Shown here: positions 27,675 through 57,604 of the stretch, one piece after another
Position numbering within the stretch: position 1 is the stretch's first letter
Layout: the number at the start of each line of letters is the position of its first letter
Assembly: GCA_000992345.1 (NCBI GenBank)
Contig: LBUA01000001.1
Span: 13,542 to 77,541 of the forward strand
Direction of reading: 5' to 3'
DNA from: Parcubacteria group bacterium GW2011_GWD2_38_12
GTDB taxonomy: Bacteria; Patescibacteriota; Minisyncoccia; GWC2-36-17
Length of the DNA stretch: 64,000 nt
The notes under the pieces: generated by a model
Databases searched by the model: none
Told to the model about the DNA's origin: nothing
What the model saw: the letters and a program-made list of their open reading frames with translations, nothing else
Position numbers and translations under genes: made by a program

Positions 27675-28726
<1,052 letters not shown>

Positions 28727-38132: not shown

Positions 38133-38309
38133 TTCTTTTTTAAAATATTTCGGGACAAAAGAATCATTCCCGCAGACGCTGATAAAATTTAAAGAGTCAA
38201 GAGGAGATATTTTATGAATAAAATCTCAGTGTGCGGATAAAAAATCATAGTGTTGTAAATATCCAGTATTATAAATTAAAAAACCAGCCGTTTAAGACGA
38301 CCGGTTTTA

Positions 38310-39323
38310 TCATTTTAGATATTTCAAGATGCTCTGATAATAATTAAGCATCTTATTGCAACACGTAAGATTATAATCCGCCGCTGATGTATACTTTTGG
38401 GGATCCCATTGAAAATAAGATTCTTCAAAATAATTAATCATAAAACGCGCGGCCAGTTCCAGCGTTATAAGAAGAGTGGCATTTAAAGCTGTTTTCTCAT
38501 TAATATAATCTTTTTTGTTTTGAGTTAAATATGCCTTCAATGCCGCGTCAAAAAGTTTTTTATCGAATTCGGCATAATTTTTAATACTCCAACTCCTGAG
38601 AGCGTCTCCAATGTCTATTAATTCATTGGCCCCCATTAAAGTATCCATATCTATTAAAGCAACCACTTTTCCGTCTCTAAAAAGAAAATTTTCAAATTTT
38701 GGATCTCCGTGTATTATTATTTTGGGTAATTTCTTCGGTAAATAATGTTTTGGCGTATTTTCCGATATAAACGATGTTTGGTATTGTGCTTTTCGAGCCT
38801 TTATTTTGTCTTCGCGGTCAGGGCTATTTGATGCAAGAGCAGTCATGAATATCAGTTTTTTAATAATTCGTTTTGTGTTGTGAAAATTTATAGCAGGTGG
38901 CTTATTTATCGGGCCGTCATATTTAGACATAATCTCATGGAATTTACCGAGTTTTGAAGCGGCTTTGATGACTAAGGGAATATTTTTCTCGACTTTGTCA
39001 TGCTCAATATAGCGCGATACCTTCCAATTGTGATTTTTAATCTTTGTCGTTAATGAGAGATTAGAGTTTTTGATTAACTGCGGGATATCGAAGAATTGAT
39101 GATTTCGTAAATAGTTTGATGCGAGATACTGTCTTAAAGTTGTGCTTTTTGGGAAAAATTTATTGAGGCGCTGGGCCACAAATGCCCCCCGATTGGTTAT
39201 TATCTTGAATGTGTCATTTGTAATTCCGCCTGATAATTTTTCGCAACTTTTTATTTCATCCAATCCAAATCTTCCAGCGACTTTTTCTAATGCTTCCATA
39301 TCCCCATCATTGATTATCGGCAT
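38310..39323 (-). CDS. Aminoglycoside/choline-ethanolamine kinase-family phosphotransferase (APH fold)
   Basis: Brenner motif IHGDPKFENFLF and DxD (LIDMDT) of APH-type kinases. Confidence 0.7.
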   Translation of the reverse strand: MPIINDGDMEALEKVAGRFGLDEIKSCEKLSGGITNDTFKIITNRGAFVAQRLNKFFPKSTTLRQYLASNYLRNHQFFDIPQLIKNSNLSLTTKIKNHNWKVSRYIEHDKVEKNIPLVIKAASKLGKFHEIMSKYDGPINKPPAINFHNTKRIIKKLIFMTALASNSPDREDKIKARKAQYQTSFISENTPKHYLPKKLPKIIIHGDPKFENFLFRDGKVVALIDMDTLMGANELIDIGDALRSWSIKNYAEFDKKLFDAALKAYLTQNKKDYINEKTALNATLLITLELAARFMINYFEESYFQWDPQKYTSAADYNLTCCNKMLNYYQSILKYLK

Positions 39324-39365
39324 AATCAGCCCCCTTTTTATATTTTAGCTGTATTTTAAAAGAAC

Positions 39366-40541
39366 CTAATATTTTATCTTAATAAAATCATTATATAATT
39401 TTTCGTATTCTAAGACAATATTTTCAATAGCGTATTTTTGAGCCGCTTTTTGGGAGTTTTCCGACATTTTTTGTCTTAAGGTCGGGTTTTCTATTAATTT
39501 GGTTATCTCTTTTGAGAGTTCGATAAAGCTGTACCTTTCCGTTATGAGACCGGTTGTTCCATGTTCTACATATTCATCGATTGGGGATTTGGCGACAATT
39601 TGCGGCAGGCCTAGAGCCATTGCCTCAAATATCGGCAAGGGCTGATTTTCGGTATCTGATGCGGTAATAAAAATATCATTTGCAGCCACGGCATCGATGA
39701 AATTTTGGTCTATCAACATGCCAAAAAATATGACCTTGTCTCTAATGTTTAATCTTTTCGCGAATTTTTCAAGATTTTTTCTCTCCGGTCCATCGCCAAT
39801 TAAGGAAAGTTTTATTTTGGGATATTTTGGCGAAAGAAGCGCAAAAACTTTCAAGAGTTCATGGATTCTTTTCTCGTAGGTAATTTTTCCGAAATAAACT
39901 AAAGAAAATTCTGGCAAACCACAACGTTTTTTTAGTATATCTTTTTGCGCTGATGGTTTAAATTTAGAAATATCTATTGAGTTGGGAATAATAGAAACTG
40001 GAGCAGTAAGACCGTTTTTGATAAGATTCTCCGCAATGGTTTTTGACGGTACAATGACTATTTTACAGGAGTTATAAAATTTAACAATTTCTTTTTTAAG
40101 GAGGAATTCCGAAAGAAATGATCGACTTTTTATTATATGTTCTATATAGTTGGCATAAAAAGTATGGTGGGATCCGATTAGGGGAAGTTTTAAGATGCGA
40201 GCGACTTTTCGCGCTTCGTGGCCGGCGAAAAAGGGCGTATGAGCATGAATAACATCGGGATTTAATGAAAGAATATCCCGAAAGCCGGGGTTTATGGGAT
40301 GGAAGATATTTTTCAGATTAAAATATTCGTTTTTTGCTCTGTAGATTTCTATAAGTTGCGGTTTTTCAAAGTCGTTATCTATATTATTCTCTGATGATTG
40401 GTTTGTGAAAATAGAAACATTGTGGCCGTGATTTGCAAGTTCGTGGCTTAATGTTTGGAGAGAAACAGAAATACTGTTTATGTCCGGAAGAAAAGTGTCG
40501 GAAAAAAAGGAGATACGCATAAAATATGAAACATGTAACAT
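39366..40541 (-). CDS. Glycosyltransferase family 4
   Basis: GT-B fold. C-terminal region FITASDTENQPLPIFEAMALGLPQIV (E-x7-E). Confidence 0.8.
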   Translation of the reverse strand: MLHVSYFMRISFFSDTFLPDINSISVSLQTLSHELANHGHNVSIFTNQSSENNIDNDFEKPQLIEIYRAKNEYFNLKNIFHPINPGFRDILSLNPDVIHAHTPFFAGHEARKVARILKLPLIGSHHTFYANYIEHIIKSRSFLSEFLLKKEIVKFYNSCKIVIVPSKTIAENLIKNGLTAPVSIIPNSIDISKFKPSAQKDILKKRCGLPEFSLVYFGKITYEKRIHELLKVFALLSPKYPKIKLSLIGDGPERKNLEKFAKRLNIRDKVIFFGMLIDQNFIDAVAANDIFITASDTENQPLPIFEAMALGLPQIVAKSPIDEYVEHGTTGLITERYSFIELSKEITKLIENPTLRQKMSENSQKAAQKYAIENIVLEYEKLYNDFIKIKY

Positions 40542-40582
40542 GAAATATGTAATCCGCCGTGGCGGACTTCATGATTCATGAG

Positions 40583-42442
40583 TTAATCGAGTCGGTAGAC
40601 GAAGATTGAGTGTCCAATCGTTGTAATCGGTTTTTTATCTTTGAGCCAGGAGTAGGTATCTTCCGGCTTCATAATAAATCCAGGAGCTGGTTTTCCATGA
40701 GCATTTTGAAGTAATGTGGCAGAAATAGCAAAATAGCCATGATATGGACCCTTTGATGATTGCCATTGGTCATATTTTTCACCAAGATAATATCTGGGTG
40801 ATCCGCCTCCGAAATATTCAACCCCAATTTTATTTATTTTATTTTTTTCAACATATTGAGTAAGCCGTTTTAAATCCTGTCCCCAGTCAAGATTGGAATC
40901 CACTACATATCTGTATCCATTTTTAGGTCCGCCGATCAATTCATTGAAATATGCTAAAAAATACGGGAAAGTGAAAATCGTGGCGATAGCGTACCAAAAA
41001 AGTAGGATTGCGATTAGCGCATAACGCGAGAAAATTTTCAGATATGAACCAATAACATTTCCGATTGCCTTGAATGGGAATTTAGATAGATCAATAATTT
41101 CATTTTTTAATATTGCCCATTTATTTATTTCTGCGCTAATTAGAACATAGACAAAGGGGAATGTCGGAATAATATGCCTGACTCCGATATTAAGATTGCT
41201 ACGGAGCGTGACAAGCCAATACAGTATAATAAATCCCAGCATCGCTACCTCGTGATAATTATTTTTTGCCCAGTGAATTAGAGCCGTAAACATTGATGGT
41301 TCTTCGTGGCGGCGCTTGGTATTGGCAATGAATAATTTTATGAATCCATAAATTGCAATTAGTATCATTATATGTTTAGCCAGTGGTTCTTTTATCAAAT
41401 AAACAATCAGGAAATAGCTTTTCCATCCTGCGGATGACACCTCGCCCAGGTAGTAGGTTGTATTGCCTCCGGTGGCGCGTTGAGTCACCATCAAAAACCC
41501 ATGACCGTATTGGGCAAATGGCCTTAAGATTGGTTTGTCAGACATCCAGATAATCGGATCTGCAAATAAGCGATTCCCGAATGAACCCAAATTGAATATG
41601 GTATCCGCTTTTTGACGCTCGGCGGGATAGTTCCATGTATGCCACTGATAAATCGGCCAGACAACGAAGATAAATCCAGCAGATATAATAGATACGCTCA
41701 TTACACCGTGCTTGAAAGAGCGCCAAATTTTTTCTTTGAATGGAGCGTCTGTTTGGATATATCCGTAGAGTAGGGCGAGTAATCCTAAAAATGGAATTAA
41801 TAAAAATGTGGAAAATTTCGCGAGTATCGCAAAGCCGAAAGCTAAAGAAGCAAGAATAAAGAATTTGGGAGTTTTATTGCGCAGAAATTTAACGAAATAA
41901 TATATAGAAATAAATATACCGGCAGTCGCTCCGATATCGGTGGTGACAAATCTTCCGTGGGCGAGTATTGTTGGAGAAAATACATAAAGGGTCAGTGCCA
42001 TCAAAGCCGTTTTATCTCCAAATTCCTCAAGAGTCCATTTGAAAATATAAAATCCAAGAAGTAGCATTATGAGTATCGGACCAATGCGTCCCCAGAAAAT
42101 TATTTTATCCGGATTATTTCCCGATTCATATAAAAATTGCGATCCCAAAACCCACTGGTCGTTTATATTTTCTTTCCACGCTTTGCCGTCGTTAGGAAAT
42201 TTAAGATCCATAAATTGCAGGGGAAGAGCGGCAATATCTTTTATAAGCGGAGGATGCTCTGGATTTAAGCGCATATCTTTGTATTTAAGATAGGAATATC
42301 CGGCAGCGATATGGGGAGATTCGTCCATAATAACAGAGTCGTTCCACATGCTGGCAACGGCCAAAATAAGCATTATGCCGAGTAATGCGCAAGCAAGGAT
42401 GTTGGTGAATTTGCGTTCAAACATATTTAAATTATGAATCAT
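40583..42442 (-). CDS. Polytopic membrane glycosyltransferase, GT-C superfamily (PMT/ArnT-like)
   Basis: N-terminal DESPHIAAGYSY...NPEHPPL loop-1 motif typical of GT39/GT83-like enzymes, 10 or more TM helices, and a C-terminal soluble domain. Confidence 0.5.
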   Translation of the reverse strand: MIHNLNMFERKFTNILACALLGIMLILAVASMWNDSVIMDESPHIAAGYSYLKYKDMRLNPEHPPLIKDIAALPLQFMDLKFPNDGKAWKENINDQWVLGSQFLYESGNNPDKIIFWGRIGPILIMLLLGFYIFKWTLEEFGDKTALMALTLYVFSPTILAHGRFVTTDIGATAGIFISIYYFVKFLRNKTPKFFILASLAFGFAILAKFSTFLLIPFLGLLALLYGYIQTDAPFKEKIWRSFKHGVMSVSIISAGFIFVVWPIYQWHTWNYPAERQKADTIFNLGSFGNRLFADPIIWMSDKPILRPFAQYGHGFLMVTQRATGGNTTYYLGEVSSAGWKSYFLIVYLIKEPLAKHIMILIAIYGFIKLFIANTKRRHEEPSMFTALIHWAKNNYHEVAMLGFIILYWLVTLRSNLNIGVRHIIPTFPFVYVLISAEINKWAILKNEIIDLSKFPFKAIGNVIGSYLKIFSRYALIAILLFWYAIATIFTFPYFLAYFNELIGGPKNGYRYVVDSNLDWGQDLKRLTQYVEKNKINKIGVEYFGGGSPRYYLGEKYDQWQSSKGPYHGYFAISATLLQNAHGKPAPGFIMKPEDTYSWLKDKKPITTIGHSIFVYRLD

Positions 42443-42521
42443 AAAACATGAATCAATTTTTAAAAATACGAATTTTAATTATTGAATGTATGTCGCGTGC
42501 TTCATGTTGTATGTTGCGTGA

Positions 42522-44192
42522 TTATTTAATTATATAATTAAATCCTTCCCCCTTTTCTAATTTTCCGGGAGCCAGAGATTGCAATTGTTTTGTTAAATTA
42601 TCATCATACTCCATTAATATAATAACATACGATTTATCATCATAAAAATTTCGCTTTTTTATATCGTTCGGCAATAAATAAATTATATTCTTTTCAAGTT
42701 GGTTGGTTTTTTTATAGCTGTTTGTTATAAACATTGTTGTCTGACTGGACATGGGAATGTTATTGACCAGTGCGCCCCCGCTATTTATTATTACGTATTT
42801 TTTTATATCCCCGGGCAGATTATTGATAAATCGGCCGATTTTAACGTAATTGTCGGAGAAAGCTCCTTTTATATTGGGATTATTAGCATAATTGACAAAG
42901 TATTTTCGATATCCGCTAAATGCCACGTAAAATAAGATAATAAAATATAGTGGCATAATTAATTTCTTGTTGGAATATAGGAAGATTTTCTTTTTAAAAA
43001 AATTATAAAGTGTAAAAGTTCCAAGGCCGGCAAGTATGAATGTTGGAGGGATGGCGCCGATGGATCTTAAAGCATGCGGCAGGCCTTCGGTGCTCAAGAT
43101 TGACGGAGCAAGCATAGCGGAAAACCACGCAAGTAAAAATATGTGTTGCAAGGGGATGGGATTGTGCGGGAATTTTTTCAGTAATTGGTAGCAGAATTTC
43201 AGGAATTTTTTTAAACAGATGAAAATACCGATTAAGAAGAAAATGCCGACAGGCCAGAAAAGCAATGGTGAACCCGCAAAGTTATGCCGCCAATTCCAGT
43301 CGCCAATAAAATTAAATTGCGCAAGTGTCAAAATAGAGCTTTTTATTACTTCTGTTATTGGATTCTCCGAAGCGAAAATCGAAACCTGTCCGGCTCTGCC
43401 GATGAAATCATCCGGATGAATGTAGAAATAATAGAATATCGGCAATGCCGCAAGAAGGGCAAAAGAGCCGTAAATAACGATGTTATAGAAGAATTCTTTT
43501 AATAATTCTTTTTTGTTTGCGCTATTTTCAATATCGCCGGCGCCATTTGTTCTTATTATTTCAATTAATTTAAAAATCAAAACTGCAATTACCACAATTG
43601 GAACGATACGAAAAGCGATATAGGTGTGAAAACCAAGACCCATGAATATGCCAGCCCAAATAAAATTAATATTTTTTTTAGTTCTAAATCCTTTAAATAA
43701 AAAATAAAAAGAAAAAGTCGTGAGAAACGGCAACATAATGGCGCGAAAACCAATACGGGAGAAGTTTGTATGCCAGAAGCTCACAGCGAGAAAGAAAGAT
43801 GATAAAAGAGCAATAATTTTTGAATTATGAAGTATGAATTTTGAATTATGGAGATTATTTTCTGGCTCCAATTCTTGATTCATAATTCTTGATTCATAAT
43901 TCTTTTTGCAAAAAAGCTCTTTGGTCAATAAATACACTCCTAAAACTGTTAATACGCCAAACAATGCGCTTACTAGTCGCAATGCCCACGGCTCATTGCC
44001 GAATGTCGCGACAGATAGCGCCTGGATATTTATAAAAAGTCCTTCGCGACCGTTATTTTCCGGATAAAATATCTTAAAATTTCCAGTTGAGAGCGCTTCC
44101 AGCGCGTTGTTGCCGTTCATAGCTTCGTCCGGGTAAAGTCCGGGCGGCATCTGGGCTATATTGTAGAAACGGAAAAAAGTCGCTATAATCAA
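42522..44192 (-). CDS. Polytopic membrane glycosyltransferase, GT-C superfamily (ArnT/PMT-like), second paralogue
   Basis: N-terminal RFYNIAQMPPGLYPDEAMNG (DE motif in the first extracytoplasmic loop), and more than 10 TM helices. Confidence 0.55.
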   Translation of the reverse strand: MIIATFFRFYNIAQMPPGLYPDEAMNGNNALEALSTGNFKIFYPENNGREGLFINIQALSVATFGNEPWALRLVSALFGVLTVLGVYLLTKELFCKKNYESRIMNQELEPENNLHNSKFILHNSKIIALLSSFFLAVSFWHTNFSRIGFRAIMLPFLTTFSFYFLFKGFRTKKNINFIWAGIFMGLGFHTYIAFRIVPIVVIAVLIFKLIEIIRTNGAGDIENSANKKELLKEFFYNIVIYGSFALLAALPIFYYFYIHPDDFIGRAGQVSIFASENPITEVIKSSILTLAQFNFIGDWNWRHNFAGSPLLFWPVGIFFLIGIFICLKKFLKFCYQLLKKFPHNPIPLQHIFLLAWFSAMLAPSILSTEGLPHALRSIGAIPPTFILAGLGTFTLYNFFKKKIFLYSNKKLIMPLYFIILFYVAFSGYRKYFVNYANNPNIKGAFSDNYVKIGRFINNLPGDIKKYVIINSGGALVNNIPMSSQTTMFITNSYKKTNQLEKNIIYLLPNDIKKRNFYDDKSYVIILMEYDDNLTKQLQSLAPGKLEKGEGFNYIIK

Positions 44193-44284
44193 GATGGCAA
44201 TTAGATAGATTTTATATTTATGAGTTTTGATAAATTGTATATTTAAGTGATCAAGCGATCTTATAAATTATATCAAATTAATCC

Positions 44285-44773
44285 GTGGAAAACCATAAAG
44301 ATAAAAAGAAGGAGATTCCAGCTTTTATGGAAACAAATTCAGTGCAAAGTTTAGAGGCGCAACCAAAAACTCAGCTTCACGAAGAAATCGCCGAACTTGA
44401 AAAAAATTTAGAAGAGAAAAAGCGTTTGGCGGGAATATCAGGCGTTGAGATTCCTTACGAAAAAGAGGTTTTTAAGGATGTTATTAAAGAGCATATCTCT
44501 CAAAAAAGAGAGCAGATTTTGTCTTCTCTACCGCCTTCACAAGCGCAGGCACAACAGGCACAAGTGGCAGATGACGCGCAAAAATTAAAAGAATTGACCG
44601 AGCAGAAACAGCTTGAGGAGTTAATAGGTATTGCTCATAAAAAAAGTCCGATTGCCGCGGCGCATATTGCCGAACATATGAAAAATCCCAGATTACTTGA
44701 TAGCTTTCATGATTATTTGACTGATCAATTGTATGATTATTTAGTAAAAACCAGAAAATTAAGAGAACTTTAA
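44285..44773 (+). CDS. Hypothetical coiled-coil protein
   Basis: ORF only. Gln/Ala-rich low-complexity centre. Confidence 0.35.
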   Translation: MENHKDKKKEIPAFMETNSVQSLEAQPKTQLHEEIAELEKNLEEKKRLAGISGVEIPYEKEVFKDVIKEHISQKREQILSSLPPSQAQAQQAQVADDAQKLKELTEQKQLEELIGIAHKKSPIAAAHIAEHMKNPRLLDSFHDYLTDQLYDYLVKTRKLREL

Positions 44774-44852
44774 GTTAGCTATTCCAGTGGTTCAGCTATT
44801 TTAGCGGTTTAGCTTCGGCTATACTGCTATACCGCCATACCGCTTACCGCCC

Positions 44853-47303
44853 TTGATTTTAAATCTAAATTTAGACCCCAGAATATTGATTATTATTATT
44901 TTATTTGTAGCGCTGACCATTTCAATAATTGTCGCGCTAATTTTTATTTCTCGCATGAAAGAAGAGGGGAGATTGGAGCGGTCATTGAATATGGTTTTAT
45001 TTTTAGTGACATTGCCGAGATTCAAGCCGGAAAAAGAGGGCGAAAAACGTGAAGAGAAAAATTTTATAGCGATATCGGAACAGTTTTTTACCGGTTTATC
45101 GGAGATAACAGACAAGGGATTTTTGAAAAATTTTATTTATGGCCAGCCGTACTTGGTACTGGAGATGGCTGTGTCGTCAAATGCCAATGAAATAGTTTTT
45201 TATATTGCTGTCCCGAGAAAATTTTCCGAAATTCTAGAAAGACAAATTCATAGTTTTTTCCCCGGCGCTTTTTATGAGAGAGTAAAAGACTACAACCCCT
45301 TTGTTTCGGGTGGATATACTGCCGCATCTTATGTTTCTCTTGCCAAGCATTATGCAATGCCGGTTCGCACATATCAAAAAATGGAAGTTGATCCATTAAG
45401 CGCGTTCGCTAATTCGCTCTCAAAGTTGCAGGAAAAGGGAGAAGGCGGAGCGATACAACTATTAATTTCTCCTGCAAAAAATTGGCAAAAATTCAGTTCG
45501 GAAGTGATAAGGCAAATGCAAAAAGGATTGGAATTTTCTAGAGCTATCAAAAGGGCGCAGGGCGGCGTTTGGGAAACTATCAATGAAATATTTATCAAGA
45601 AAAAAAAAGAGAAAGAGCCAAAATTATTGACGCCAATCCAAGAAGAGGAAATAAAAATTATCAGCGAAAAGGCGCAAAAAGTCGGTTTTGCGGTAAATAT
45701 TAATCTTGTGGCTTCGGCGCAAACGAAAGCCAGAGCAGAAGAAATTTTATCGCAAATAGAGAAAAGTTTTACCCAATTTTCTTCACCTAATCTTAATTCT
45801 TTCAAAATTAATCGTTTGAGCAGTAAGGTGGCTGAAGATATAATTTATGATTTTTCCTTTCGGATTTTTCACATACACAGCAAAATGATTTTAAATACAG
45901 AAGAATTGGCGAGTATATATCATTTCCCCACTCCGTATTTGGAAACGCCCAAGATAAGATATCTGACCTTCAAAAAAGCTCCTCCGCCGGTAACTTTACC
46001 AGAGGAAGGGGTGATGCTGGGAATAAATATTTATCGCGGCATTGAGACTACCGTGAAGATGACGCGCGATGACAGGAGAAGACATTTGTATGTTATCGGT
46101 CAAACCGGCACGGGAAAAACATTTTTATTGCAAAATATGATTCGCCAAGATATGGAAAACGGTGACGGATGCTGTTTCATCGATCCGCACGGTGAGGCGA
46201 TTGAATACATTTTGGGATTAGTGCCGAAAAATAGGGCGGATGATGTCGTGGTTTTTGACCCAGCCGACCTTGAAAGGCCTTTAGCGTTGAATTTTCTGGA
46301 GTATGACCCTGCCCATCCGGAACAGAAAACTTTCATTACCAATGAACTGCTTGTGATATTGGATCGACTTTATAATCTTAAAGAAACCGGCGGGCCAATG
46401 TTTGAAAGATATTTAAGAAATACTTTGGGGCTTTTGATGGATTTTCCGGAAAAAGGATTTACTTTGATGGAGATACCAAAAATTTTTGCTGATGAAGATT
46501 TCAGGAATAATCTTTTGGCGAATTGCAAAGATATTTTAGTAAAAGAATTTTGGGAAAAAGAGGCGCTTAAAGTGAAGGGTGAAGGATCGTTGGCTGAGTT
46601 GACCCCATATATCACCAGTAAATTTGGCATATTTATAAATAATGATTATATGAGGCCCATTATCGGCCAATCAAAAAGCACTTTGAATTTTAGCGATATT
46701 ATAAATAACAAAAAGATATTATTGATAAATCTTTCTAAGGGGAAAATAGGCGATATAAATTCGCAGTTGCTCGGTATGATAGTTGTCGGTAAATTAACTC
46801 AAGCGGCATTGGCGCGTGTTGATATGCCCCAAGAACAAAGAAAAGATTTTTATTTATACATTGACGAGTTTCAAAATTACACCACTCCGTCGATTTCCAC
46901 TATTTTATCCGAGGCGAGAAAATATCGGCTATGTCTTAATTTGGCGCATCAATTTATTGGTCAATTGCCTGAAGATATTTCAAAAGCTGTTTTTGGCAAT
47001 GTCGGATCTCTGGCGCTTTTTCGGGTTGGACCGGAAGACGCGGAATTTTTGACGCAATTTTTAAAGCCGGTATTTTCCGAATATGATTTGATAAATTTGG
47101 ATAATCGGAACGCATTGGTCAAGTTGTTGGTAAATGGCGCAGTGACTCAGTCATTTAACATTACCACGACAATGACCGATATTCCGTCGCCCGATTTGGA
47201 GATTACCTCTGCCATCAAACAGCTTTCTCGCTTGAAATTTGGGCGCGATAAAGTGATAATAGAAGAAGAGATAAGAACTCGCTATAAACAATCTGACAAT
47301 TAA
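44853..47303 (+). CDS. Membrane-anchored P-loop ATPase of the TraD/TraG/VirD4 (type IV coupling protein)-like family
   Basis: N-terminal TM helix, then HLYVIGQTGTGKTFLL Walker A followed by CFIDPHGE, then Walker B YIDEFQNY and SEARKYRLCLNLAHQFIGQL, all as in T4CP/TrwB-type ATPases. Confidence 0.55.
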   Translation: MILNLNLDPRILIIIILFVALTISIIVALIFISRMKEEGRLERSLNMVLFLVTLPRFKPEKEGEKREEKNFIAISEQFFTGLSEITDKGFLKNFIYGQPYLVLEMAVSSNANEIVFYIAVPRKFSEILERQIHSFFPGAFYERVKDYNPFVSGGYTAASYVSLAKHYAMPVRTYQKMEVDPLSAFANSLSKLQEKGEGGAIQLLISPAKNWQKFSSEVIRQMQKGLEFSRAIKRAQGGVWETINEIFIKKKKEKEPKLLTPIQEEEIKIISEKAQKVGFAVNINLVASAQTKARAEEILSQIEKSFTQFSSPNLNSFKINRLSSKVAEDIIYDFSFRIFHIHSKMILNTEELASIYHFPTPYLETPKIRYLTFKKAPPPVTLPEEGVMLGINIYRGIETTVKMTRDDRRRHLYVIGQTGTGKTFLLQNMIRQDMENGDGCCFIDPHGEAIEYILGLVPKNRADDVVVFDPADLERPLALNFLEYDPAHPEQKTFITNELLVILDRLYNLKETGGPMFERYLRNTLGLLMDFPEKGFTLMEIPKIFADEDFRNNLLANCKDILVKEFWEKEALKVKGEGSLAELTPYITSKFGIFINNDYMRPIIGQSKSTLNFSDIINNKKILLINLSKGKIGDINSQLLGMIVVGKLTQAALARVDMPQEQRKDFYLYIDEFQNYTTPSISTILSEARKYRLCLNLAHQFIGQLPEDISKAVFGNVGSLALFRVGPEDAEFLTQFLKPVFSEYDLINLDNRNALVKLLVNGAVTQSFNITTTMTDIPSPDLEITSAIKQLSRLKFGRDKVIIEEEIRTRYKQSDN

Positions 47304-47306
47304 CAA

Positions 47307-48023
47307 ATGACGATTGACTATTTGGTCAAATGTCAAAGGTTAAAAGTCAAGAAGTTTGCAAAACATATGGAACAACCATTTCAGAGGGCTCAAGCAACGG
47401 TCGCGGTGGAATCAGCTTCTCCTGTGATTAAGTTTAGAAAAGGGGACGCAATAGCTTCGGTGGCGTTGGGGCTTATCATCGGATTTTTTACGCCGTTTAT
47501 TTTAAATAATATCGGACGGACTTTGCCTCTTCAGGATTTTTATTTTGTAATCTTCCCTATTGTGGCGCTGATGGGAATGTGGATTGTTTTTTTGATTGCC
47601 GCGAGAGTTCCGGTTTTGGTGCAGATTACGAAATTTGGCGCAATTGGCGCAGCTAATACCGTAATTGATTTTGGGATATTGAATTTTCTGTCTTTCAAAT
47701 TCCAGATTTTTAGCGGAGGAAGTCTGACTATATTGAATATTATTTCTTTTAGTGTCGCCGTCATAAATAGTTATTTTTGGAACAAGCACTGGACTTTTAA
47801 ATCCGAGCAAAATAATTCCAGCAAACAATTTATAGAGTTTATTGTTGTGTCCGTTATAGGAGTATTAATAAATACTGGAATAGTTTATTTAATGACGACT
47901 TTGGTTATTCCTTTTGCTGGTATTTCCGAGCAGATTTGGTTAAATATCGGCAAATTGATGGCAACATTTATTTCTCTTGCATGGAACTTCGCTGGTTATA
48001 AATTTATAGTGTTTAGAAAATAA
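47307..48023 (+). CDS. GtrA-family polyprenol-phosphate-sugar flippase-like membrane protein with an N-terminal extension
   Basis: C-terminal about 130 aa with 4 TM helices and GtrA hallmarks (KFGAIGAANTVIDFGILNFL ... FWNKHWTF ... WNFAGYKFIVFRK). Confidence 0.65.
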   Translation: MTIDYLVKCQRLKVKKFAKHMEQPFQRAQATVAVESASPVIKFRKGDAIASVALGLIIGFFTPFILNNIGRTLPLQDFYFVIFPIVALMGMWIVFLIAARVPVLVQITKFGAIGAANTVIDFGILNFLSFKFQIFSGGSLTILNIISFSVAVINSYFWNKHWTFKSEQNNSSKQFIEFIVVSVIGVLINTGIVYLMTTLVIPFAGISEQIWLNIGKLMATFISLAWNFAGYKFIVFRK

Positions 48024-48198: not shown

Positions 48199-48684
48199 AT
48201 GTATGAGATTTATAAATTTTTACATGGAATTGGAATTTTAATGACTGTTGGCGTGATTACCGCGTCGCTTATTTACGGTTGGTATAAAAAATTATTCCCA
48301 AATAATAAATTATTAACCAAAATCCAATTTCCATATAAGTGGATATCTCCGTCGGTGAAAATTGGCCTTGTTGTTTTAATTATTTCCGGCCTTGGGATGT
48401 ATGCGGAGAGAGCGGAACAATTCAATAGTTCGGCGGTTTTTTGGATAAAAATGGGTTTTGTTTTGGCGCTTGTAATAAATAATATTTGGTTAAACAGCAT
48501 TTTAAAACCAAAAGGCAAAAAGATATTTTCCGATCCAGTTCTTGCCAATTCGCCGGAAGCCTTAAAACTTAAAAAGACATTTAATTTTGCAGAAAATCTG
48601 TCTTTATTTTTATGGTTCACAACCATGATTGTAAGTTTTCTTTTGCCTGAGGGCCGTGAAGAGCGCGGAGGAAGAGAATTTTAA
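48199..48684 (+). CDS. Hypothetical membrane protein (4 TM)
   Basis: ORF with TM helices. The start codon is supplied by the upstream repeat element. Confidence 0.4.
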   Translation: MYEIYKFLHGIGILMTVGVITASLIYGWYKKLFPNNKLLTKIQFPYKWISPSVKIGLVVLIISGLGMYAERAEQFNSSAVFWIKMGFVLALVINNIWLNSILKPKGKKIFSDPVLANSPEALKLKKTFNFAENLSLFLWFTTMIVSFLLPEGREERGGREF

Positions 48685-48766
48685 TTATAGATTTATAACA
48701 CACAGAGCATGCAGCATGAAGTCCGCCGCGGCGGATTCATGTTTCATGTCTCATGTTTTATGTTGC

Positions 48767-49882
48767 ATGAGCTTAGTTTTATATCGTAAATATCGTCCTA
48801 AAACTTTTGCCGAGATTAGCGGGCAAAAGCATATTGTTGAAACCTTGGTCAATGCCATAAAGAGCGGGCGAGTAGCGCATGCCTATTTATTTTGCGGTCC
48901 GCGCGGCACAGGCAAGACGACTATGGCGCGTTTACTTGCCAAAGCATTAAATTGCGAAAAACTTTTAACTTTTAACTTTAAACTTTCAACTGACCCAATA
49001 GAGCCGTGTAATAAATGTTTGAGTTGTCAGTCAATCAACGATGGCAATGCTCTGGATATCATTGAAATAGACGCGGCTTCCAATAGGGGTATTAATGAAA
49101 TTCGCGATTTGCGCGAAGGAGTAAAATTTTCTCCAGCCGCGCTTAAATACAAAGTATTTATTATTGACGAGGTACATATGTTAACCAAAGAAGCGTTCAA
49201 TGCTCTGCTTAAAACACTGGAAGAGCCGCCCCAGCACGCCATTTTTATTTTGGCCACAACCGAAGCGAATAAAATACCAGCGACGATTTTATCGCGTTGT
49301 CAGAGATTTGATTTTAGAAAATTATCGGTCAATGAGATTATAGAAAGGCTGAATGGAATTATAAAAAAGGAGGGGATAGATTGCGGCGATGATGTTGTAA
49401 GCTTTATTGCGACAATCAGCGATGGCGGACTTCGCGATGCTGAGTCATTGCTTGGCCAAATTATTAGCGTATCGAGCGGGAAAATAGATTTGGAAACGGT
49501 TCAGGATGTTTTAGGGATTGCCGACATGAGAGATGTATATGCATTTGTTGATTTGCTTATTAATAATAATCATCAGGAAATTTTTAAATTTATCAATAAT
49601 CTTTTTAATCAGGGAAAAGATATGGCGGAGTTTATGAGATCATCTTCTAATTATTTAAGAAAAATGATGATTTGTCAGATTGACAATGCGCTTGTTGCCA
49701 CCGTAGCCAAAGATATGACACGCGAACAACAGGTAAATTTGTGCTCCCAGGCGCAAAAATTTGAAAATGCCAAGATTCATAAAATAGTGGCCCGACTAGT
49801 GGATGCTGAAAATCAAATTAAAAAATCATTCTCTCCTATTATTCCCATTGAGCTTGCTATGATTGATATTTTAGGGATATAA
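48767..49882 (+). CDS. dnaX: DNA polymerase III subunit gamma/tau (short, gamma-like), with an in-frame TTAACTT (reverse AAAGTTA) heptamer insert
   Basis: YRPKTFAEISGQKHIV, Walker A GPRGTGKTT, Zn module CNKCLSCQ, DEVHML and SRCQRF. The insert reads LLTFNFKLSTD between the Walker A and the zinc module. Confidence 0.9.
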   Translation: MSLVLYRKYRPKTFAEISGQKHIVETLVNAIKSGRVAHAYLFCGPRGTGKTTMARLLAKALNCEKLLTFNFKLSTDPIEPCNKCLSCQSINDGNALDIIEIDAASNRGINEIRDLREGVKFSPAALKYKVFIIDEVHMLTKEAFNALLKTLEEPPQHAIFILATTEANKIPATILSRCQRFDFRKLSVNEIIERLNGIIKKEGIDCGDDVVSFIATISDGGLRDAESLLGQIISVSSGKIDLETVQDVLGIADMRDVYAFVDLLINNNHQEIFKFINNLFNQGKDMAEFMRSSSNYLRKMMICQIDNALVATVAKDMTREQQVNLCSQAQKFENAKIHKIVARLVDAENQIKKSFSPIIPIELAMIDILGI

Positions 49883-49987: not shown

Positions 49988-50049
49988 CACGAGTCAGTGC
50001 GTTATTGAGAGACCGAGAAGGCTATATTTTAAGTTATTAATTATATCTA

Positions 50050-50484
50050 ATGCAAAATTACAAAGACAAAATAATTGAATTTATAAGATTATTTTTGTTA
50101 TCGTTGTTTATAATATTTGTTTTATTAATTTTACCAATACTAATAGAAACTATTTTAAGATTATATTTGGAAAGTAGAACAATTGGCGTATTAATAACAT
50201 CTATTTATTTAATTACTTTTCTATATATTTTATATTATAAAAAAAGAGACAAGAGTAAGACATTTCTAGAAAATTTTTATTTGTTTACAAATTCCATAAG
50301 AAAATCTATAAAAGAAATAATTAGTTTTATTACAAAAATTCCTCACTTTTTTAAATTAACAGGAAATTCTATTATCAAAATAGTAGGTTACATTTTTGTT
50401 GCGGCATTGATAATAATCCCAATATTTATAGTCATAATAATTATGTTAGCCATTATAAAATGGTCTTTTCAAATAGTGTTTTAG
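50050..50484 (+). CDS. Hypothetical membrane protein (AT-rich islet downstream of tRNA-Gln)
   Basis: ORF with 4 TM helices. Very AT-rich codon usage compared with neighbouring housekeeping genes. Confidence 0.35.
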   Translation: MQNYKDKIIEFIRLFLLSLFIIFVLLILPILIETILRLYLESRTIGVLITSIYLITFLYILYYKKRDKSKTFLENFYLFTNSIRKSIKEIISFITKIPHFFKLTGNSIIKIVGYIFVAALIIIPIFIVIIIMLAIIKWSFQIVF

Positions 50485-50508
50485 TTTTTAATCTATTAAA
50501 ATAAGATT

Positions 50509-51111
50509 TTGTTAGTAAATAATTGTTTAGATAAAATATTTATGGAAGATCAAATAATTAAAATATCTGAAGATATAACTTCTATTGCTGATAGCACTAA
50601 TCAAATTCAATCTTATATTAAAATCATCTTACAACGCCATTGGTGGGATACTCAATGGTTTTCTTCGTTATTTGGTGTTATTTTGGGCACTATAATAACA
50701 TTATCGATTGGATGGATGAAAGATTATTTACAATGGAGAAAGAAAATTTTATTGAGTTGGTATAAAAAATTGATAAAAGGCCCAAATTTAGATGATCTAA
50801 TATATCAAGCGCTTCATATTAGTTATGCTTATGGTGGAAAAGATACAAATGACAAATCCTTATCAGAAAAAGTTTTAATTGAGTTTCGTAAAAAATATAA
50901 GCATTGGAATCTTCCATTATTATCAAGACTTCGGTTTTTATTTATAAAATGTGAGAAGTTTATTAAAAAATTACCAAATAAAAATAATGCACAGTATGAA
51001 GAATTTAAGAAAAGTGATGAATATAAAATATTAAATAAAATTTTTAATAAAATTATTTTTATTTCCGAAAAGAGCACCGGAGAAAATCGATGGACATTAA
51101 TTAATGATTAA
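50509..51111 (+). CDS. Hypothetical protein (AT-rich islet)
   Basis: ORF only. One central TM helix. Confidence 0.35.
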   Translation: MLVNNCLDKIFMEDQIIKISEDITSIADSTNQIQSYIKIILQRHWWDTQWFSSLFGVILGTIITLSIGWMKDYLQWRKKILLSWYKKLIKGPNLDDLIYQALHISYAYGGKDTNDKSLSEKVLIEFRKKYKHWNLPLLSRLRFLFIKCEKFIKKLPNKNNAQYEEFKKSDEYKILNKIFNKIIFISEKSTGENRWTLIND

Positions 51112-51265
51112 AATAATTAAATATTTAATTTATAGCTACCACCGCGACCCGACCGAGACGGGTTATTGTGGTATAATAAAAACAGTCAAAAAAGCTCTCA
51201 ACGGTCTCGCTAGTTTTGGTTCTAGACCGGAGTAGCTAGCCAACAAAGATAAGTTGGAAAGACTG

Positions 51266-51299
51266 CCTCGCGGATAGATATCCGCGAGGTTTTTGTTTT
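51266..51299 (+). terminator. Rho-independent terminator (plus orientation) ending a roughly 110-nt possible small transcript
   Basis: cctcgcgga-tagata-tccgcgagg followed by tttttgttttg. Confidence 0.7.
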
Positions 51300-51306
51300 G
51301 TAGGCA

Positions 51307-52017
51307 TTATAGAAGTGATAAAAATTCTTCCAGTTCTTTTCCGATAATTGGCCTTATTTTATTAGGTTTGAGATTACCAAGGCGTATGTTCATAATGCGA
51401 ATTCTTTTTAGATCTGCGACTGCATACCCAAGCGCTCCGCACATTCTTCTGATTTGATGTTTTTTGCCTTCCGTCAGGATTATTCTAAAAGTAAAGTTAT
51501 TGATGCGACTAATTTTGCATTTCTTTGTTCTATAACCATCAATATTCACACCCTCGCTCATGCGTTTGAAAAAACTCGGCTTCAAGGGAGTTCTAACATT
51601 TACGATATATTCTTTTTCGTGATTATATTCAGGACTCAAGAGTTTTTCGGTGATGCGACCATCGTCCGTGAGGATTATTAATCCCTCAGAATCTTTATCA
51701 AGGCGACCCATAGGGAAAATATGTGTATTTAACAAAAAATCGCGAATGCTTTTTTCGTTCATTTGCGGGCTGTGAGTAATAACGCCGCGAGGCTTATTAT
51801 AGGCGATATAAGAATATTTTCTATTCGCTATATCTCTTGGTATTTTTACATCATCTCCTTCGTTGACCATATCGCCAAGCACGGCAATTTTACCATTTAT
51901 AAATACATTTTTTCTTCTAATCAGATCATCAGCCCCTCTGCGGGTCGCGAGGTTATGTAGAGCCAGATATTTATTTATCCTTATTGGATAGGATATTGAT
52001 TTTGAATTTTTAAGCAT
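51307..52017 (-). CDS. rRNA pseudouridine synthase, RsuA/RluB family (S4 domain plus catalytic domain)
   Basis: N-terminal S4 (IRINKYLALHNLATRRGADDLI), catalytic motif GRLDKDSEGLIILTDDG, and C-terminal KxYxV region. Confidence 0.85.
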   Translation of the reverse strand: MLKNSKSISYPIRINKYLALHNLATRRGADDLIRRKNVFINGKIAVLGDMVNEGDDVKIPRDIANRKYSYIAYNKPRGVITHSPQMNEKSIRDFLLNTHIFPMGRLDKDSEGLIILTDDGRITEKLLSPEYNHEKEYIVNVRTPLKPSFFKRMSEGVNIDGYRTKKCKISRINNFTFRIILTEGKKHQIRRMCGALGYAVADLKRIRIMNIRLGNLKPNKIRPIIGKELEEFLSLL

Positions 52018-55816: not shown

Positions 55817-56170
55817 ATGGGAAAAATATTGTCAATAAATCACAAGCTTGGTAAAGCGGATATATCTTTAGATGATGTTTTGATTAGGCTTTTTATTAAG
55901 TATTATAATGGCACATGCTCTGAAATAAGAATATGGAAGCTACCATTAAAAAGAAGTTTTTGGAGCATGTTTAATGTTAAAAATTTAATTTGGGCTATTT
56001 ATAATGACGACGCTAAATATATTCATGGTTGGTTTTCAAGAGATGGTGATATTCTGGAAGTTTTAACAAGGAAGATTGAAAAATGTAATAATTATAATGA
56101 TCTTAAAGAATTGCTTATTAAATTAGAGAATATTATAAATGGAATTTCTTTACCACATGATGAGTTATAA
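55817..56170 (+). CDS. Hypothetical small protein (orphan cassette gene 2)
   Basis: ORF only. Confidence 0.3.
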   Translation: MGKILSINHKLGKADISLDDVLIRLFIKYYNGTCSEIRIWKLPLKRSFWSMFNVKNLIWAIYNDDAKYIHGWFSRDGDILEVLTRKIEKCNNYNDLKELLIKLENIINGISLPHDEL

Positions 56171-56191
56171 AATTTTTTAAATTAGCGAAAT

Positions 56192-56407
56192 ATGAAAAAT
56201 ATAATTATTATTTTAATAATTTTAGTAGCCGCCATCGGTAGCGGATTGTTTTATTGGTATGAGTATAGACCGAATAAAATAAGAAGTTATTGCAATGATA
56301 AGGCACAAGATACTTTAACCGGCTCACTTCGAGAATTTGTAGCGGTTCAAGCCAACTATGAAGATAATTATAAAAAATGTTTAAGAGGTAATGGAATAAG
56401 AGAGTAA
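56192..56407 (+). CDS. Hypothetical small signal-anchored protein with two Cys (orphan cassette gene 3)
   Basis: N-terminal TM/signal helix. Confidence 0.3.
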   Translation: MKNIIIILIILVAAIGSGLFYWYEYRPNKIRSYCNDKAQDTLTGSLREFVAVQANYEDNYKKCLRGNGIRE

Positions 56408-56423
56408 GTTAAATAAAATTTTT

Positions 56424-56747
56424 ATGGGAAATTTAACAGATGCTTTAAAAAAATATAATGGAAATTCGTTGCCAGAAGATATAATTAAGGGGTTGCAAGA
56501 TGGTGGTTATACTCATGGATTAAATCCGGCGACAGAGGAACCGATTTTTCAAAACTATTTAACTGCTTTATTAAACTCAAAAACTAATAAAGAATTGTCT
56601 GTATCTTTAAATAATTTTAAGGATGTGATAAAAGAATTCTCGCTTTCAAGTTTTGAGTCAACAAAAGCATTGAATCTTTGGACAATGGTATTGGCGTTTG
56701 CCACAACAGCATTAGTATTTGTGACAATCGTAGCGATATTTTATTAA
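56424..56747 (+). CDS. Hypothetical C-tail-anchored small protein (orphan cassette gene 4)
   Basis: C-terminal TM helix. Confidence 0.3.
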   Translation: MGNLTDALKKYNGNSLPEDIIKGLQDGGYTHGLNPATEEPIFQNYLTALLNSKTNKELSVSLNNFKDVIKEFSLSSFESTKALNLWTMVLAFATTALVFVTIVAIFY

Positions 56748-56754
56748 GAGTAAA

Positions 56755-57129
56755 TTGTTTGAAAATATGAATTTTACTGAAGCAAACAAAATTTTTAAAA
56801 TTTGGAGTGAATGGTATTGGCCATCTCACTTTATACTGCATTCAGTTTTTCTCAATAAAATACCGGAATCTTTTTTGCCATATCAAAAAAATGTTTTAGA
56901 GGAGGCACTAAATATTATAGCAAAGCAATATTATGACAATGGCGATTTTAAGGTCTCCAAAAATATCCAAGAATCTATCGCGTCTCTTGCGGCTTATGTA
57001 AGAGATGATGATGCCTTACAGCAAGTGTCTGACAGATTATCTGATGTTAAGATGAGAGAGGCTGTACTTATTTATATTTCAAATTTTAAAAAAGATTGGA
57101 AAAATTGGTTAGACAAACAAGAGGATTAA
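56755..57129 (+). CDS. Hypothetical small protein, Trp-rich N-terminus (orphan cassette gene 5)
   Basis: ORF only. Confidence 0.3.
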   Translation: MFENMNFTEANKIFKIWSEWYWPSHFILHSVFLNKIPESFLPYQKNVLEEALNIIAKQYYDNGDFKVSKNIQESIASLAAYVRDDDALQQVSDRLSDVKMREAVLIYISNFKKDWKNWLDKQED

Positions 57130-57217
57130 AAAGAAAGGCATATGTCTCATAAGTCAAGATAAAATAAACCTTTTTAAAATTTTTTAACAAAATTTAATTG
57201 CTTGAGATAGTTGTATT

Positions 57218-57598: not shown

Positions 57599-57604
57599 TT
57601 CGGT

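Follow-up and report, generated by a model that had tools for sequence, protein, structure and literature searches.

What is an ATPase resembling the coupling proteins (T4CPs) of type IV secretion systems (T4SSs) doing among genes for glycosylation? The question is raised by positions 38310-48023 of the window, the whole 64,000-nucleotide stretch of DNA analysed here, from the genome of a tiny bacterium of the candidate phyla radiation (Patescibacteria), where four minus-strand genes for sugar-handling enzymes adjoin a plus-strand ATPase gene followed by a gene for a GtrA-like membrane protein. All seven open reading frames (ORFs) of this interval were found at their given coordinates. An initial annotation took the whole for a possible ensemble of glycosylation and ATPase genes. 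Our analysis separates them: the region is best read as modules lying side by side, namely an operon for ordinary envelope glycosylation and a motor ATPase of conjugation type, spread through the phylum and accompanied by its own partner (Table 1).

Table 1. Positions of the genes, domains and intergenic features in the window, with the evidence for each.
Feature	Coordinates	Strand	Evidence or detail
Terminator-like hairpin	38280-38308	-	12-pair stem, 5 GC pairs, then T-run; just past APH gene
APH-fold (eukaryotic-like kinase fold) small-molecule kinase, 337 aa	38310-39323	-	PF01636, 53.9 bits vs cut-off 23.2, 2.9e-14
Cytoplasmic GT4 (GT-B fold) glycosyltransferase, 391 aa	39366-40541	-	Glycos_transf_1 4.8e-35, Glyco_transf_4 4.9e-24
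GT-C membrane glycosyltransferase (PMT_2/ArnT-like), 619 aa	40583-42442	-	PMT_2 45.4 bits vs cut-off 26.1, 1.3e-11
Second GT-C membrane glycosyltransferase, 556 aa	42522-44192	-	PMT_2 31.8 bits vs 26.1, 2e-7; PMT 2.4e-7, above cut-off
Divergent intergenic region, glycosylation operon vs ATPase operon	44193-44284		20-nt direct repeat 44201-44245 (family D1)
Soluble helical partner protein of ATPase, 162 aa	44285-44773	+	separate at -1 or fused in related loci
Spacer, partner gene to ATPase gene	44774-44852	+	predicted hairpin, inverted repeat I3
ATPase, 816 aa	44853-47303	+	TM helix, VirB4-NTD-like domain (DUF8128), VirD4/VirB4-type P-loop domain with helical insertion
Single N-terminal TM helix of ATPase, residues 11-33	44883-44951	+	sequence
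DUF8128 domain of ATPase, residues 40-360	44970-45932	+	fold of VirB4 N-terminal domain
P-loop domain of ATPase, residues 387-735	46011-47057	+	Walker A 46098-46121, Walker B 46851-46868, HQ..QL 46947-46967
GtrA-family membrane protein, 238 aa	47307-48023	+	PF04138, 77.6 bits vs cut-off 26.1, 1.2e-21

The glycosylation genes are by themselves ordinary, and the assignments first given to the APH, GT4, GT-C and GtrA proteins hold, all passing their Pfam cut-offs with catalytic motifs intact. Membership of the APH protein in the APH or eukaryotic-like kinase fold is indicated by its profile score together with the HxDxxxxN loop and DxD site, seen here as an intact catalytic loop HGDPKFEN (HGDxxxxN) and metal site IDMD (DMD); matches to the CotS and homoserine-kinase-II models are weak, and the protein is probably a sugar or small-molecule kinase. 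The GT4 enzyme carries the E-x7-E motif and finds its best NCBIfam match in alpha-monoglucosyl-diacylglycerol synthase (5.5e-47, under that model's cut-off). Both membrane enzymes belong to the GT-C class (PMT_2, GT39/GT83-like) by profile, by their multiple transmembrane (TM) helices and by a DE motif in the first loop near the N-terminus, VIMDESPH in the 619-aa protein and LYPDEA in the 556-aa protein; in the latter the first TM helix reaches upstream of the first canonical start codon (TTG), and the true start may lie further upstream. A sequence search for solved relatives of either protein found none. The two had been called paralogues, a relationship that we reject at the pairwise level, as BLASTP detects no similarity between them (E 0.94).

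That the four genes form one minus-strand operon of envelope-glycosylation type is borne out by intergenic gaps of 41-79 nt and by the terminator-like hairpin beyond the APH gene, which marks the operon end, and all four also occur in a relative at 70% identity. The two cytoplasmic enzymes, the kinase and the GT4 transferase, would produce a sugar or glycolipid or prime one, substrates that we infer entirely, and the GT-C enzymes would draw on polyprenyl-phosphate donors to transfer sugars at the external face of the membrane. A promoter scan returned 53 matches against a shuffled expectation of 38.6 +/- 6.4, barely more, and its matches were therefore left unused.

The GtrA-like protein, which has about 100 extra N-terminal residues, had been put forward as the partner component of a Gtr system. 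Its family assignment stands, and it plausibly serves the enzymes of the glycosylation operon; the Gtr-type system itself is incomplete here, because the scanned ORFs of the window hold no GT2 domain and no GtrB-like GT2 donor synthase, so that GtrA, GtrB-like GT2 and GT-C do not occur together. In one relative (L082) a GT2 lies about 3 kb farther downstream. The gtrA-like gene begins 3 nt past the ATPase stop codon, and it keeps its place downstream of the ATPase in two relatives, one 70% and the other 55% identical, which makes co-transcription likely.

Could the ATPase, GtrA and the GT-C, GT4 and APH enzymes then constitute a single system for surface glycosylation or glycoconjugate export? 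The 3-nt gap is consistent with this, as are the order GT-C (minus strand), small gene, ATPase, GtrA, kept in the same two relatives, and a recurrent pattern among 80 related ATPase loci, five of which have a minus-strand homologue of the 42522-44192 gene at -2, upstream of the ATPase pair; in a sixth it stands at -1. None of these genes, however, is a conserved neighbour of the ATPase across the 80 loci: GtrA is near it in 4, GT4 in 1 and APH in 0, and a homologue of either GT-C gene in about 7-10. The genes at +1 are heterogeneous, with NDK in 18 loci and GtrA in only 2 of the 29 others, and the idea that GtrA is a conserved ATPase partner was rejected. In two relatives (L081 and L082) other, unrelated genes separate the GT-C genes from the ATPase pair, we know of no glycosylation pathway that uses a VirD4-type ATPase, and the partner that is conserved is a small soluble protein. 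The adjacency of the glycosylation genes to the ATPase is lineage-level synteny only, and their union in one system, already largely refuted for want of neighbourhood conservation, appears very unlikely to us.

The sole conserved neighbour of the ATPase among the 80 loci, and its real conserved partner, is the 162-aa ORF. In 23 loci it stands as a gene of its own at -1, as it does in the closest relatives, and in 33 it is fused to the N-terminus of the ATPase, a fusion that public gene calls display independently. Matches of the iterated partner profile to the ATPase are these real N-terminal fusions, and their reading as an artefact of profile drift was rejected. The family shares the C-terminal motif KG[IV]xxAxxVAxxMxxP[YH][IL]LDxFHDxL in the alignment; the window protein shares 100% identity with a hypothetical Ca. 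Azambacteria protein, its domain matches no Pfam or PDB sequence, and the family is absent from viral loci and from the loci of Bacillus-type conjugation plasmids. A second family at -1 (about 164 aa, 6 loci, in Komeili- and Falkow-type lineages) was rejected as a homologue at an hhalign probability of 0.4%. The 162-aa ORF was omitted from the initial annotation. A hairpin is predicted across the spacer between the two genes (44765-44870, MFE -26.1 kcal/mol, z = -3.0). Partner and membrane-anchored ATPase form a two-gene plus-strand module, 44285-47303, in which the partner may act as a cis-acting adaptor or regulator.

The architecture of the ATPase itself is composite. Its P-loop domain is of the FtsK/HerA superfamily, with intact Walker A (GQTGTGKT) and Walker B (YLYIDE) motifs and SEARKYRLCLNLAHQFIGQL, and the catalytic residues are invariant across the family members compared. 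From the positive charges that follow the TM helix, the remainder of the protein is predicted to be cytoplasmic. Such a helix occurs in 22 of the 23 relatives of split form but in none of the 33 fused ones; in the fused forms the partner domain takes the place of the membrane helix. The N-terminal domain matches that of VirB4 in fold (Foldseek, PDB library) and corresponds to DUF8128 (PF26449), a call taken from precomputed annotations of homologues. Full-length homologues in Patescibacteria exceed 3,990 and are named by NCBI as T4SS DNA-transfer or DNA-binding proteins; among the matches listed (120 of the more than 3,990), PF26449 is annotated and identity is 50-99% over 93-100% of the length. 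The protein thus belongs to a Patescibacteria family of ATPases in which DUF8128 (PF26449) is joined to a T4CP-like P-loop domain. The DUF8128 domain alone matched 1,342 representative clusters, and a literature search for it found no paper. We suppose that this VirB4-like domain docks the ATPase to its partners, and that the VirD4-type P-loop domain would form a putatively hexameric, ATP-driven motor acting on a presumed substrate.

Is this motor a coupling protein? The earlier label of TraD/VirD4-like stands as to kind, in view of the best PDB sequence matches, TrwB (2.3e-7) and DotL (1.3e-4), and of full-length homology to a Bacillus plasmid protein; it does not stand in the sense of a canonical VirD4 or TraD. 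Matches to curated T4CP models span only about 50-90 residues, which counts against coupling: PF10412 (TrwB_AAD_bind, 32.3 vs cut-off 20.5) and PF02534 (21.0 vs 20.1) match residues 400-493 only, PF12696 (TraG-D_C) scores 21.8 bits against a cut-off of 22, and the NCBIfam T4CP equivalog models give 30-36 bits against cut-offs of 250-650. The ATPase domain is not directly preceded by an N-terminal membrane domain, and neither relaxase nor mating-pair-formation genes lie alongside in the scanned window or in the 10-kb neighbourhoods of the 80 loci. The protein has the domain order of VirB4, its ATPase domain lying C-terminal to an N-terminal domain of VirB4 type, but by sequence it does not belong there: CagE_TrbE_VirB and AAA_10 matches are absent in Pfam and NCBIfam, and the family profile matched none of the VirB4 chains in the PDB (TrwK of R388; Thermoanaerobacter VirB4 C-terminal domain) even at E<=10. 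The possibility that the protein would profile as FtsK or HerA rather than as a T4CP has not materialized, as a HAS-barrel, the alpha/gamma domains and best similarity to HerA/FtsK are all wanting.

Origin from a remnant integrated conjugative element, or a part in defence (Dnd/DptH- or MADS-like), might be suspected from a PADLOC mad8 match (3.1e-15, residues 387-735), from a full-length match to the PHROG family phrog_5156 (1.4e-81) and from relatives on viral contigs that have the C-terminal domain only. We give this hardly any credence: among the scanned window ORFs neither a relaxase or integrase nor a methyltransferase or any further defence gene lies nearby, the GC content equals that of the flanks, and the family shows vertical-looking inheritance with conserved housekeeping synteny across the phylum. 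The defence reading in particular was rejected as an isolated mad8/HerA-type ATPase match lacking supporting context.

The initial annotation had also remarked that other type IV secretion genes are missing from the window, and the scanned ORFs indeed contain no VirB4, VirB6 or relaxase domain; the domain scan took in all but two of the window ORFs of 120 aa or more and all but several of the smaller ones, and inspection of two low-GC patches, one at 50-52 kb and the other at 56-58 kb, found no obvious pilin-like ORFs. T4SS genes are absent likewise from about 10 kb around the 80 relatives, which counts against T4SS coupling. The orphan state of the ATPase is nonetheless no peculiarity of this locus but the norm according to passages of a published survey (PMC12102498): Patescibacteria T4CP genes are chromosomal, about two per genome, and usually far from virB4, and the T4SS of the phylum, MPF-FATA-like, is present in about 80% of genomes.

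A link to conjugation comes from outside the phylum. Residues 95-768 of the ATPase align with the 885-aa DUF87 protein WP_345805471.1 of a B. subtilis plasmid (NZ_CP154917.1; BLASTP E 2e-37, 24% identity), whose gene lies directly upstream of a Replic_Relax relaxase within a TcpC/TcpE/AAA_10 conjugation module, whereas the AAA_10 VirB4 of the same plasmid gives an E of only 0.02. The position of its gene suggests a coupling role for the Bacillus protein, and by sequence the best explanation of the window ATPase is that it may represent the Patescibacteria version of a monoderm conjugation coupling ATPase. Beyond the observed domain identities, the linkage and fusion of the partner and the homology to plasmid ATPases in the coupling position, we favour, at a probability of about one half, separate modules juxtaposed on a Ca. 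Azambacteria-like chromosome, the glycosylation operon beside a pair of partner and coupling ATPase that most likely feeds a T4SS-like machine. The ATPase would deliver substrates to a chromosomal machine of this type encoded elsewhere in most Patescibacteria, the link to the T4SS being our conjecture. The complete lack of a membrane helix in the fused forms counts against it.

That same lack would be accommodated if the DUF8128 ATPase and its partner were an exapted, T4SS-independent motor, a housekeeping translocase or remodeller of DNA, RNA or protein working without a type IV channel, for instance in taking up or processing nucleic acids that the cell scavenges, or in handling the chromosome. 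Such a role would suit ATPase identities of 50-55% across orders, weak NCBIfam matches to CedB and CedD, which are ATPases of DNA import in archaea, and a constant context of housekeeping genes in the 80 relatives (secY-adk-map, ndk, dnaX), with the fused clade in a neighbourhood of nucleotide and RNA metabolism ordered secY-adk-map-ATPase-ndk-x-beta-CASP RNase-SLOG. The ribosomal-protein operon, however, commonly ends with secY, adk and map, and the adjacency to these genes may carry no meaning. Outside the phylum, the nearest relatives by full-length comparison belong to conjugation modules and lie beside relaxases. Passages of the survey report T4CP homologues in 2,918 genomes as against VirB4 in 2,417, and a non-essential t4cp beside an essential T4SS in Southlakia, both of which favour T4SS independence; there Quinonero-Coronel et al. 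2025 also flag the function of the homologues as possibly exapted (PMC12102498). How Patescibacteria take up host RNA is stated to be unresolved (bioRxiv 10.64898/2026.06.21.733656). We regard an exapted motor as possible though rather unlikely, and quite improbable in its bolder form, a near-universal housekeeping motor of Parcubacteria-type Patescibacteria that would import or process scavenged DNA or host RNA independently of any T4SS. If that form were true, the VirB4-type N-domain and VirD4-type motor, anchored by a TM helix or by the partner, would be a surviving intermediate between the ATPase lineages of VirB4 and VirD4.

Much of bacterial diversity lies in the Patescibacteria, which must obtain nucleotides and lipids from their hosts. 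The ATPase family bears on how these bacteria move macromolecules. Thousands of T4CP homologues away from T4SS genes have already been counted (passages of PMC12102498); what is added here is the anatomy of the family, with a VirB4-like N-domain, a coupling-type motor and a dedicated partner that is either a separate gene or a fusion replacing the anchor, and its tie to a relaxase-adjacent ATPase of Firmicutes plasmids. The DUF8128 or VirB4-NTD-like domain, the upstream partner, its fusion and the dichotomy of TM helix and fusion go unmentioned in those passages of PMC12102498. The choice between T4SS coupling and an exapted motor, and the role of the partner, are now directly testable questions.

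How does the locus compare with known systems? With Gtr-type glycosylation and ArnT/PMT it shares a GtrA-family protein and PMT_2-type GT-C enzymes with a first-loop DE motif, all within 5 kb, but unlike the Gtr system of GtrA flippase, GtrB GT2 and GtrC/GT-C it has no GtrB-like GT2 in the window, carries GtrA on the other strand behind the ATPase, and includes an APH kinase and a GT4 enzyme in addition. Canonical T4CPs (TrwB of R388, VirD4, TraD, DotL) begin with two N-terminal TM helices followed directly by the ATPase domain, whereas the window ATPase has one helix, or none in fused relatives, and then a 320-aa VirB4-NTD-like domain; unlike VirB4, it has no VirB3, VirB6 or VirB8 genes nearby in the window or in the neighbourhoods of the 80 relatives. 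Small proteins bound to a T4SS ATPase are known from CagZ-Cagbeta and VirB3-VirB4, to which the partner may be likened by analogy only, VirB3 being a membrane protein and the partner soluble. The DUF87 ATPase of Bacillus/Shouchella Tcp-type plasmids is homologous over both domains, the VirB4-NTD-like region and then the P-loop, and is distinct from the AAA_10 VirB4 of its own module; it differs in having neither N-terminal TM helix nor partner domain in the aligned start, in its longer C-terminal tail, and in adjoining relaxase, TcpC/TcpE and VirB4 genes, where the window gene is chromosomal, among housekeeping neighbours and without a relaxase nearby. By description, in passages of PMC12102498, and by the NCBI names of its relatives, the window ATPase fits the T4CP homologues of Quinonero-Coronel et al. 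2025.

How far do the glycosylation genes, the 816-aa T4CP-like ATPase and GtrA belong together? The initial annotation had joined them in one functional ensemble; its domain calls stand and the coordinates of its ORFs match exactly, but the ensemble reading does not survive comparison with related loci. Genome assemblies supplied 80 loci for this comparison, each carrying an ATPase of 38-53% identity and up to 10 kb of flanking sequence; they are the best-scoring of at least 507, and most belong to metagenome bins, in which taxon labels cannot be trusted. When the ORFs predicted there by our own ORF caller were queried with the window proteins, GtrA was close to the ATPase in 4/80 loci, a homologue of the 556-aa GT-C protein in seven (five of them at position -2 on the minus strand), one of the 619-aa GT-C protein in three, GT4 in one and APH in none. 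NDK occupies the +1 position in one clade; elsewhere the gene there varies (BacA, SpoU, FKBP, GNAT, methyltransferases and others), with GtrA in 2 of the 29 loci that lack NDK at +1. Closer relatives, at 70% and 55% identity, keep the order lysS-serS-ftsQ-GT-C-GT-C ... small ORF-ATPase-GtrA-dnaX, but in them the ATPase pair is separated from the GT-C genes by inserted unrelated genes. The rarity of these neighbours, together with the insertions, indicates synteny inherited within a single lineage rather than a functional link across the family.

Features of the window and the evidence for them
Feature	Position	Strand	Evidence or description
pheT (PheRS beta chain)	12076-14637	+	853 aa; NlpC/P60 domain, PF00877 7.4e-19, residues 376-485
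mreB, full length	19937-20944		
mreB, split	27696-28262 and 28259-28726	+	4-nt overlap; MreB profile positions 1-165 and 180-325
APH kinase	38310-39323	-	PF01636 2.9e-14; HGDxxxxN and DMD motifs
GT4	39366-40541	-	Glycos_transf_1 4.8e-35; E-x7-E motif
GT-C, 619 aa	40583-42442	-	PMT_2/PMT; first-loop DE motif
GT-C, 556 aa	42522-44192	-	PMT_2/PMT; first-loop DE motif
Direct repeat	44201-44245		20 nt, two copies
Partner gene	44285-44773	+	162 aa
Partner-ATPase spacer	44765-44870	+	hairpin-rich predicted fold, -26.1 kcal/mol, z = -3.0
ATPase	44853-47303	+	816 aa
GtrA	47307-48023	+	PF04138 1.2e-21
ORF of unknown family	48199-48684	+	161 aa
dnaX	48656-49882	+	408 aa, domains I-III only; profile match from residue 41
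Low-GC patches	50001-52000 and 56001-58000		GC 0.29-0.30

The glycosylation genes themselves are ordinary. All five assignments, GtrA included, exceed the curated Pfam cut-offs, and the top NCBIfam model for GT4, alpha-monoglucosyl-diacylglycerol synthase, scores under its cut-off. Spacings of 41-79 nt between the four minus-strand genes and a strong terminator-like hairpin after them make the proposed operon plausible. A direct BLASTP comparison of the two GT-C proteins, which had been called paralogous, finds no similarity (E 0.94); they are thus not recent paralogues. In the 556-aa protein, TM1 (…KIYLIAILIIATFFRF) reaches upstream of the first ATG/GTG/TTG (42522-44240, minus strand), which points either to truncation of the gene at its N-terminal end or to use of a non-canonical start codon. 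Judging from family knowledge, the APH-fold kinase and GT4, whose nearest model is a glycolipid synthase, would be placed in the cytoplasm, the two distinct GT-C enzymes would act on the outer face with polyprenyl-phosphate sugars, GtrA could plausibly supply flipped donors, and protein, lipoglycan or glycolipid are candidate acceptors; the window ORFs scanned contained no GT2 donor synthase domain. Two copies of a direct repeat (TTAGATAGATTTTATATTTA / TTTGATAAATTGTATATTTA) in the divergent promoter region that separates the GT-C gene from the partner gene may be an operator.

The window has a GC content of about 37%, with nearly all genes on the plus strand and a housekeeping complement of pheST, gyrB, mreBCD/PBP2, lysS, serS, ftsQ, dnaX and tRNA-Gln. 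Several of its features are observations in their own right. In pheT the inserted NlpC/P60 domain separates B3_4 from B5, so that an aminoacyl-tRNA synthetase here contains, unusually, a cell-wall hydrolase or thiol-peptidase fold. The split second mreB could represent a frameshift, a pseudogene, a programmed shift or a sequencing error. The short dnaX ORF as listed overlaps the ORF upstream, and, given where its profile match begins, the true start is probably further downstream. Small ORFs fill the two low-GC patches, which may be variable or acquired islets; these ORFs showed no family match and no pilin-like features.

The only neighbour that tracks the ATPase across the 80 loci is the small ORF upstream of it, which the original gene set had omitted and whose product matches a hypothetical protein of Candidatus Azambacteria bacterium RIFCSPLOWO2_01_FULL_37_9 at 100% identity. 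A domain profile locates this partner as a gene of its own, at -1 and on the same strand, in 23/80 loci; in 33/80 it is fused to the ATPase, making up the first ~130 residues of a protein of about 905-970 aa; of the remaining 24, eight are cut at a contig edge. One N-terminal TM helix is present in 22/23 split forms and in 0/33 fused forms, so that split with a helix and fused without one are strikingly mutually exclusive architectures. Public gene calls show the fusion independently: of the best 150 DUF8128 representatives, 32 are fused and lack a TM helix. In its C-terminal part the partner alignment shows a conserved motif, KG[IV]xxAxxVAxxMxxP[YH][IL]LDxFHDxL, and no relatives were found in Pfam or PDB. 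Another -1 gene of ~164 aa takes its place in six loci (L017, L024, L025, L037, L041 and L080); this family, with the motif GEET..KI..LL..KV....I..WLK.IPG.NKFF.EQE.KIK.D.I, was rejected as a partner homologue for want of homology to it. The fused clade has a conserved order of its own, secY - adk - map - ATPase - ndk - 133-aa unknown - beta-CASP RNase (RNase J-like) - SLOG/LOG-like (L013, L021, L026, L027, L029, L032, L045, L056 and others), which is a nucleotide/RNA-metabolism neighbourhood.

The ATPase is a known kind of protein with some features that we did not find described in the literature. The database search returned at least 3,990 homologues, named as Portnoybacteria, Parcubacteria or Patescibacteria; with the Azambacteria match of the partner, these names place the source organism in the CPR/Patescibacteria. 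The 120 matches listed are full length, 50-99% identical and carry precomputed PF26449 (DUF8128) at the N terminus, together with TrwB_AAD_bind, DUF87 and T4SS-DNA_transf, and the DUF8128 region as sole query retrieved 1,342 representative clusters. Curated T4CP models align with it only over short stretches and at low scores. Among PDB sequences the family profile favours TrwB (2.3e-7) and DotL (1.3e-4), with HerA after them and no VirB4 even at E ≤ 10, in keeping with a T4CP-type ATPase. The P-loop motor is intact, with invariant catalytic residues, and beyond a TM anchor the protein is cytoplasmic by the positive-inside rule. AlphaFold models, whose confidence is moderate to good, predict a VirB4-NTD-like fold for the N-domain.

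What could such an ATPase do? As its relatives do, it would form a ring-shaped, ATP-driven translocation motor; its N-domain would dock it onto membrane or channel components in the manner of the VirB4 N-domain, and the partner, genetically coupled or fused to it, might be a cis-acting adaptor or regulator, on the model of CagZ-Cagbeta or VirB3-VirB4. We favour service to a distant chromosomal T4SS, at a probability of about 0.45. In line with the first note of no other type IV secretion genes in the window, the ORFs scanned have no VirB4, VirB6 or relaxase domain. A published survey (PMC12102498) counts 5,713 VirD4-type T4CP homologues, which may not be the exact DUF8128 family, in 2,918/3,035 Patescibacteria genomes; just 148 of these homologues lie close to virB4, and VirB4-based T4SS clusters occur elsewhere on the chromosome in ~80% of genomes. 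The absence of T4SS genes from 64 kb is therefore expected and uninformative, and "orphan" status is the norm for the family. The same survey reports T4CPs in more genomes than VirB4 and a non-essential t4cp in Southlakia, adding that "exaptation cannot be ruled out" (PMC12102498); with the TM-less fused forms and the housekeeping, nucleotide-metabolism surroundings from secY to SLOG, this speaks for a T4SS-independent housekeeping role, such as nucleic-acid uptake or processing, which we consider somewhat less likely than service to a T4SS. Readings as a defence-system component or as part of a mobile element have isolated similarities: mad8 (3.1e-15), phrog_5156, a PHROG profile of unassigned function that covers the ATPase end to end (1.4e-81), and C-domain-only ATPases on viral contigs; contextual support is absent for both readings. 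The viral proteins (L084-L098, IMG/VR contigs) are stand-alone soluble ATPases of 410-450 aa; their 33-40% identity is confined to the C-terminal domain (residues ~390-812), and they match the C-terminal half of phrog_5156.

The preferred link to a T4SS can be set against conjugative systems of monoderms. In tblastn searches of plasmids, residues 95-768, spanning both domains, aligned with ~885-aa "DUF87 domain-containing" proteins of Bacillus and Shouchella. On the B. subtilis plasmid the DUF87 gene lies immediately 5' of a Replic_Relax (RelLS20-type) relaxase gene, followed by TcpC, TcpE, an AAA_10 VirB4 (7.7e-116) and a large transfer protein. Compared with the window ATPase, the DUF87 protein beside the relaxase gives E 2e-37 and the VirB4 of the same plasmid only E 0.02. 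MOB-suite types the two plasmids, of 27-31 kb, as "non-mobilizable"; L099 (B. subtilis NZ_CP154917.1) carries, by Pfam, the relaxase, TcpC, TcpE, VirB4 and the coupling-position DUF87 ATPase, L100 (Shouchella clausii NZ_CP012476.1) has the same set by annotation, and both are probably mistyped, being conjugative or, at the least, mobilizable. T4CP genes typically adjoin the relaxase gene (PMC12102498; PMC5313138), so that the Bacillus protein would by position be a coupling ATPase and the window ATPase its homologue. This comparison settles the apparent conflict between a VirB4-like N-domain and a T4CP-type sequence. The best description of the window protein is that of a Patescibacteria homologue, encoded on the chromosome, of a coupling ATPase of monoderm type with a VirB4-like N-domain, which fits the published conclusion that the Patescibacteria T4SS derives from monoderm MPF-FATA machinery (PMC12102498). 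The partner family is absent from the plasmids and from the viral relatives.
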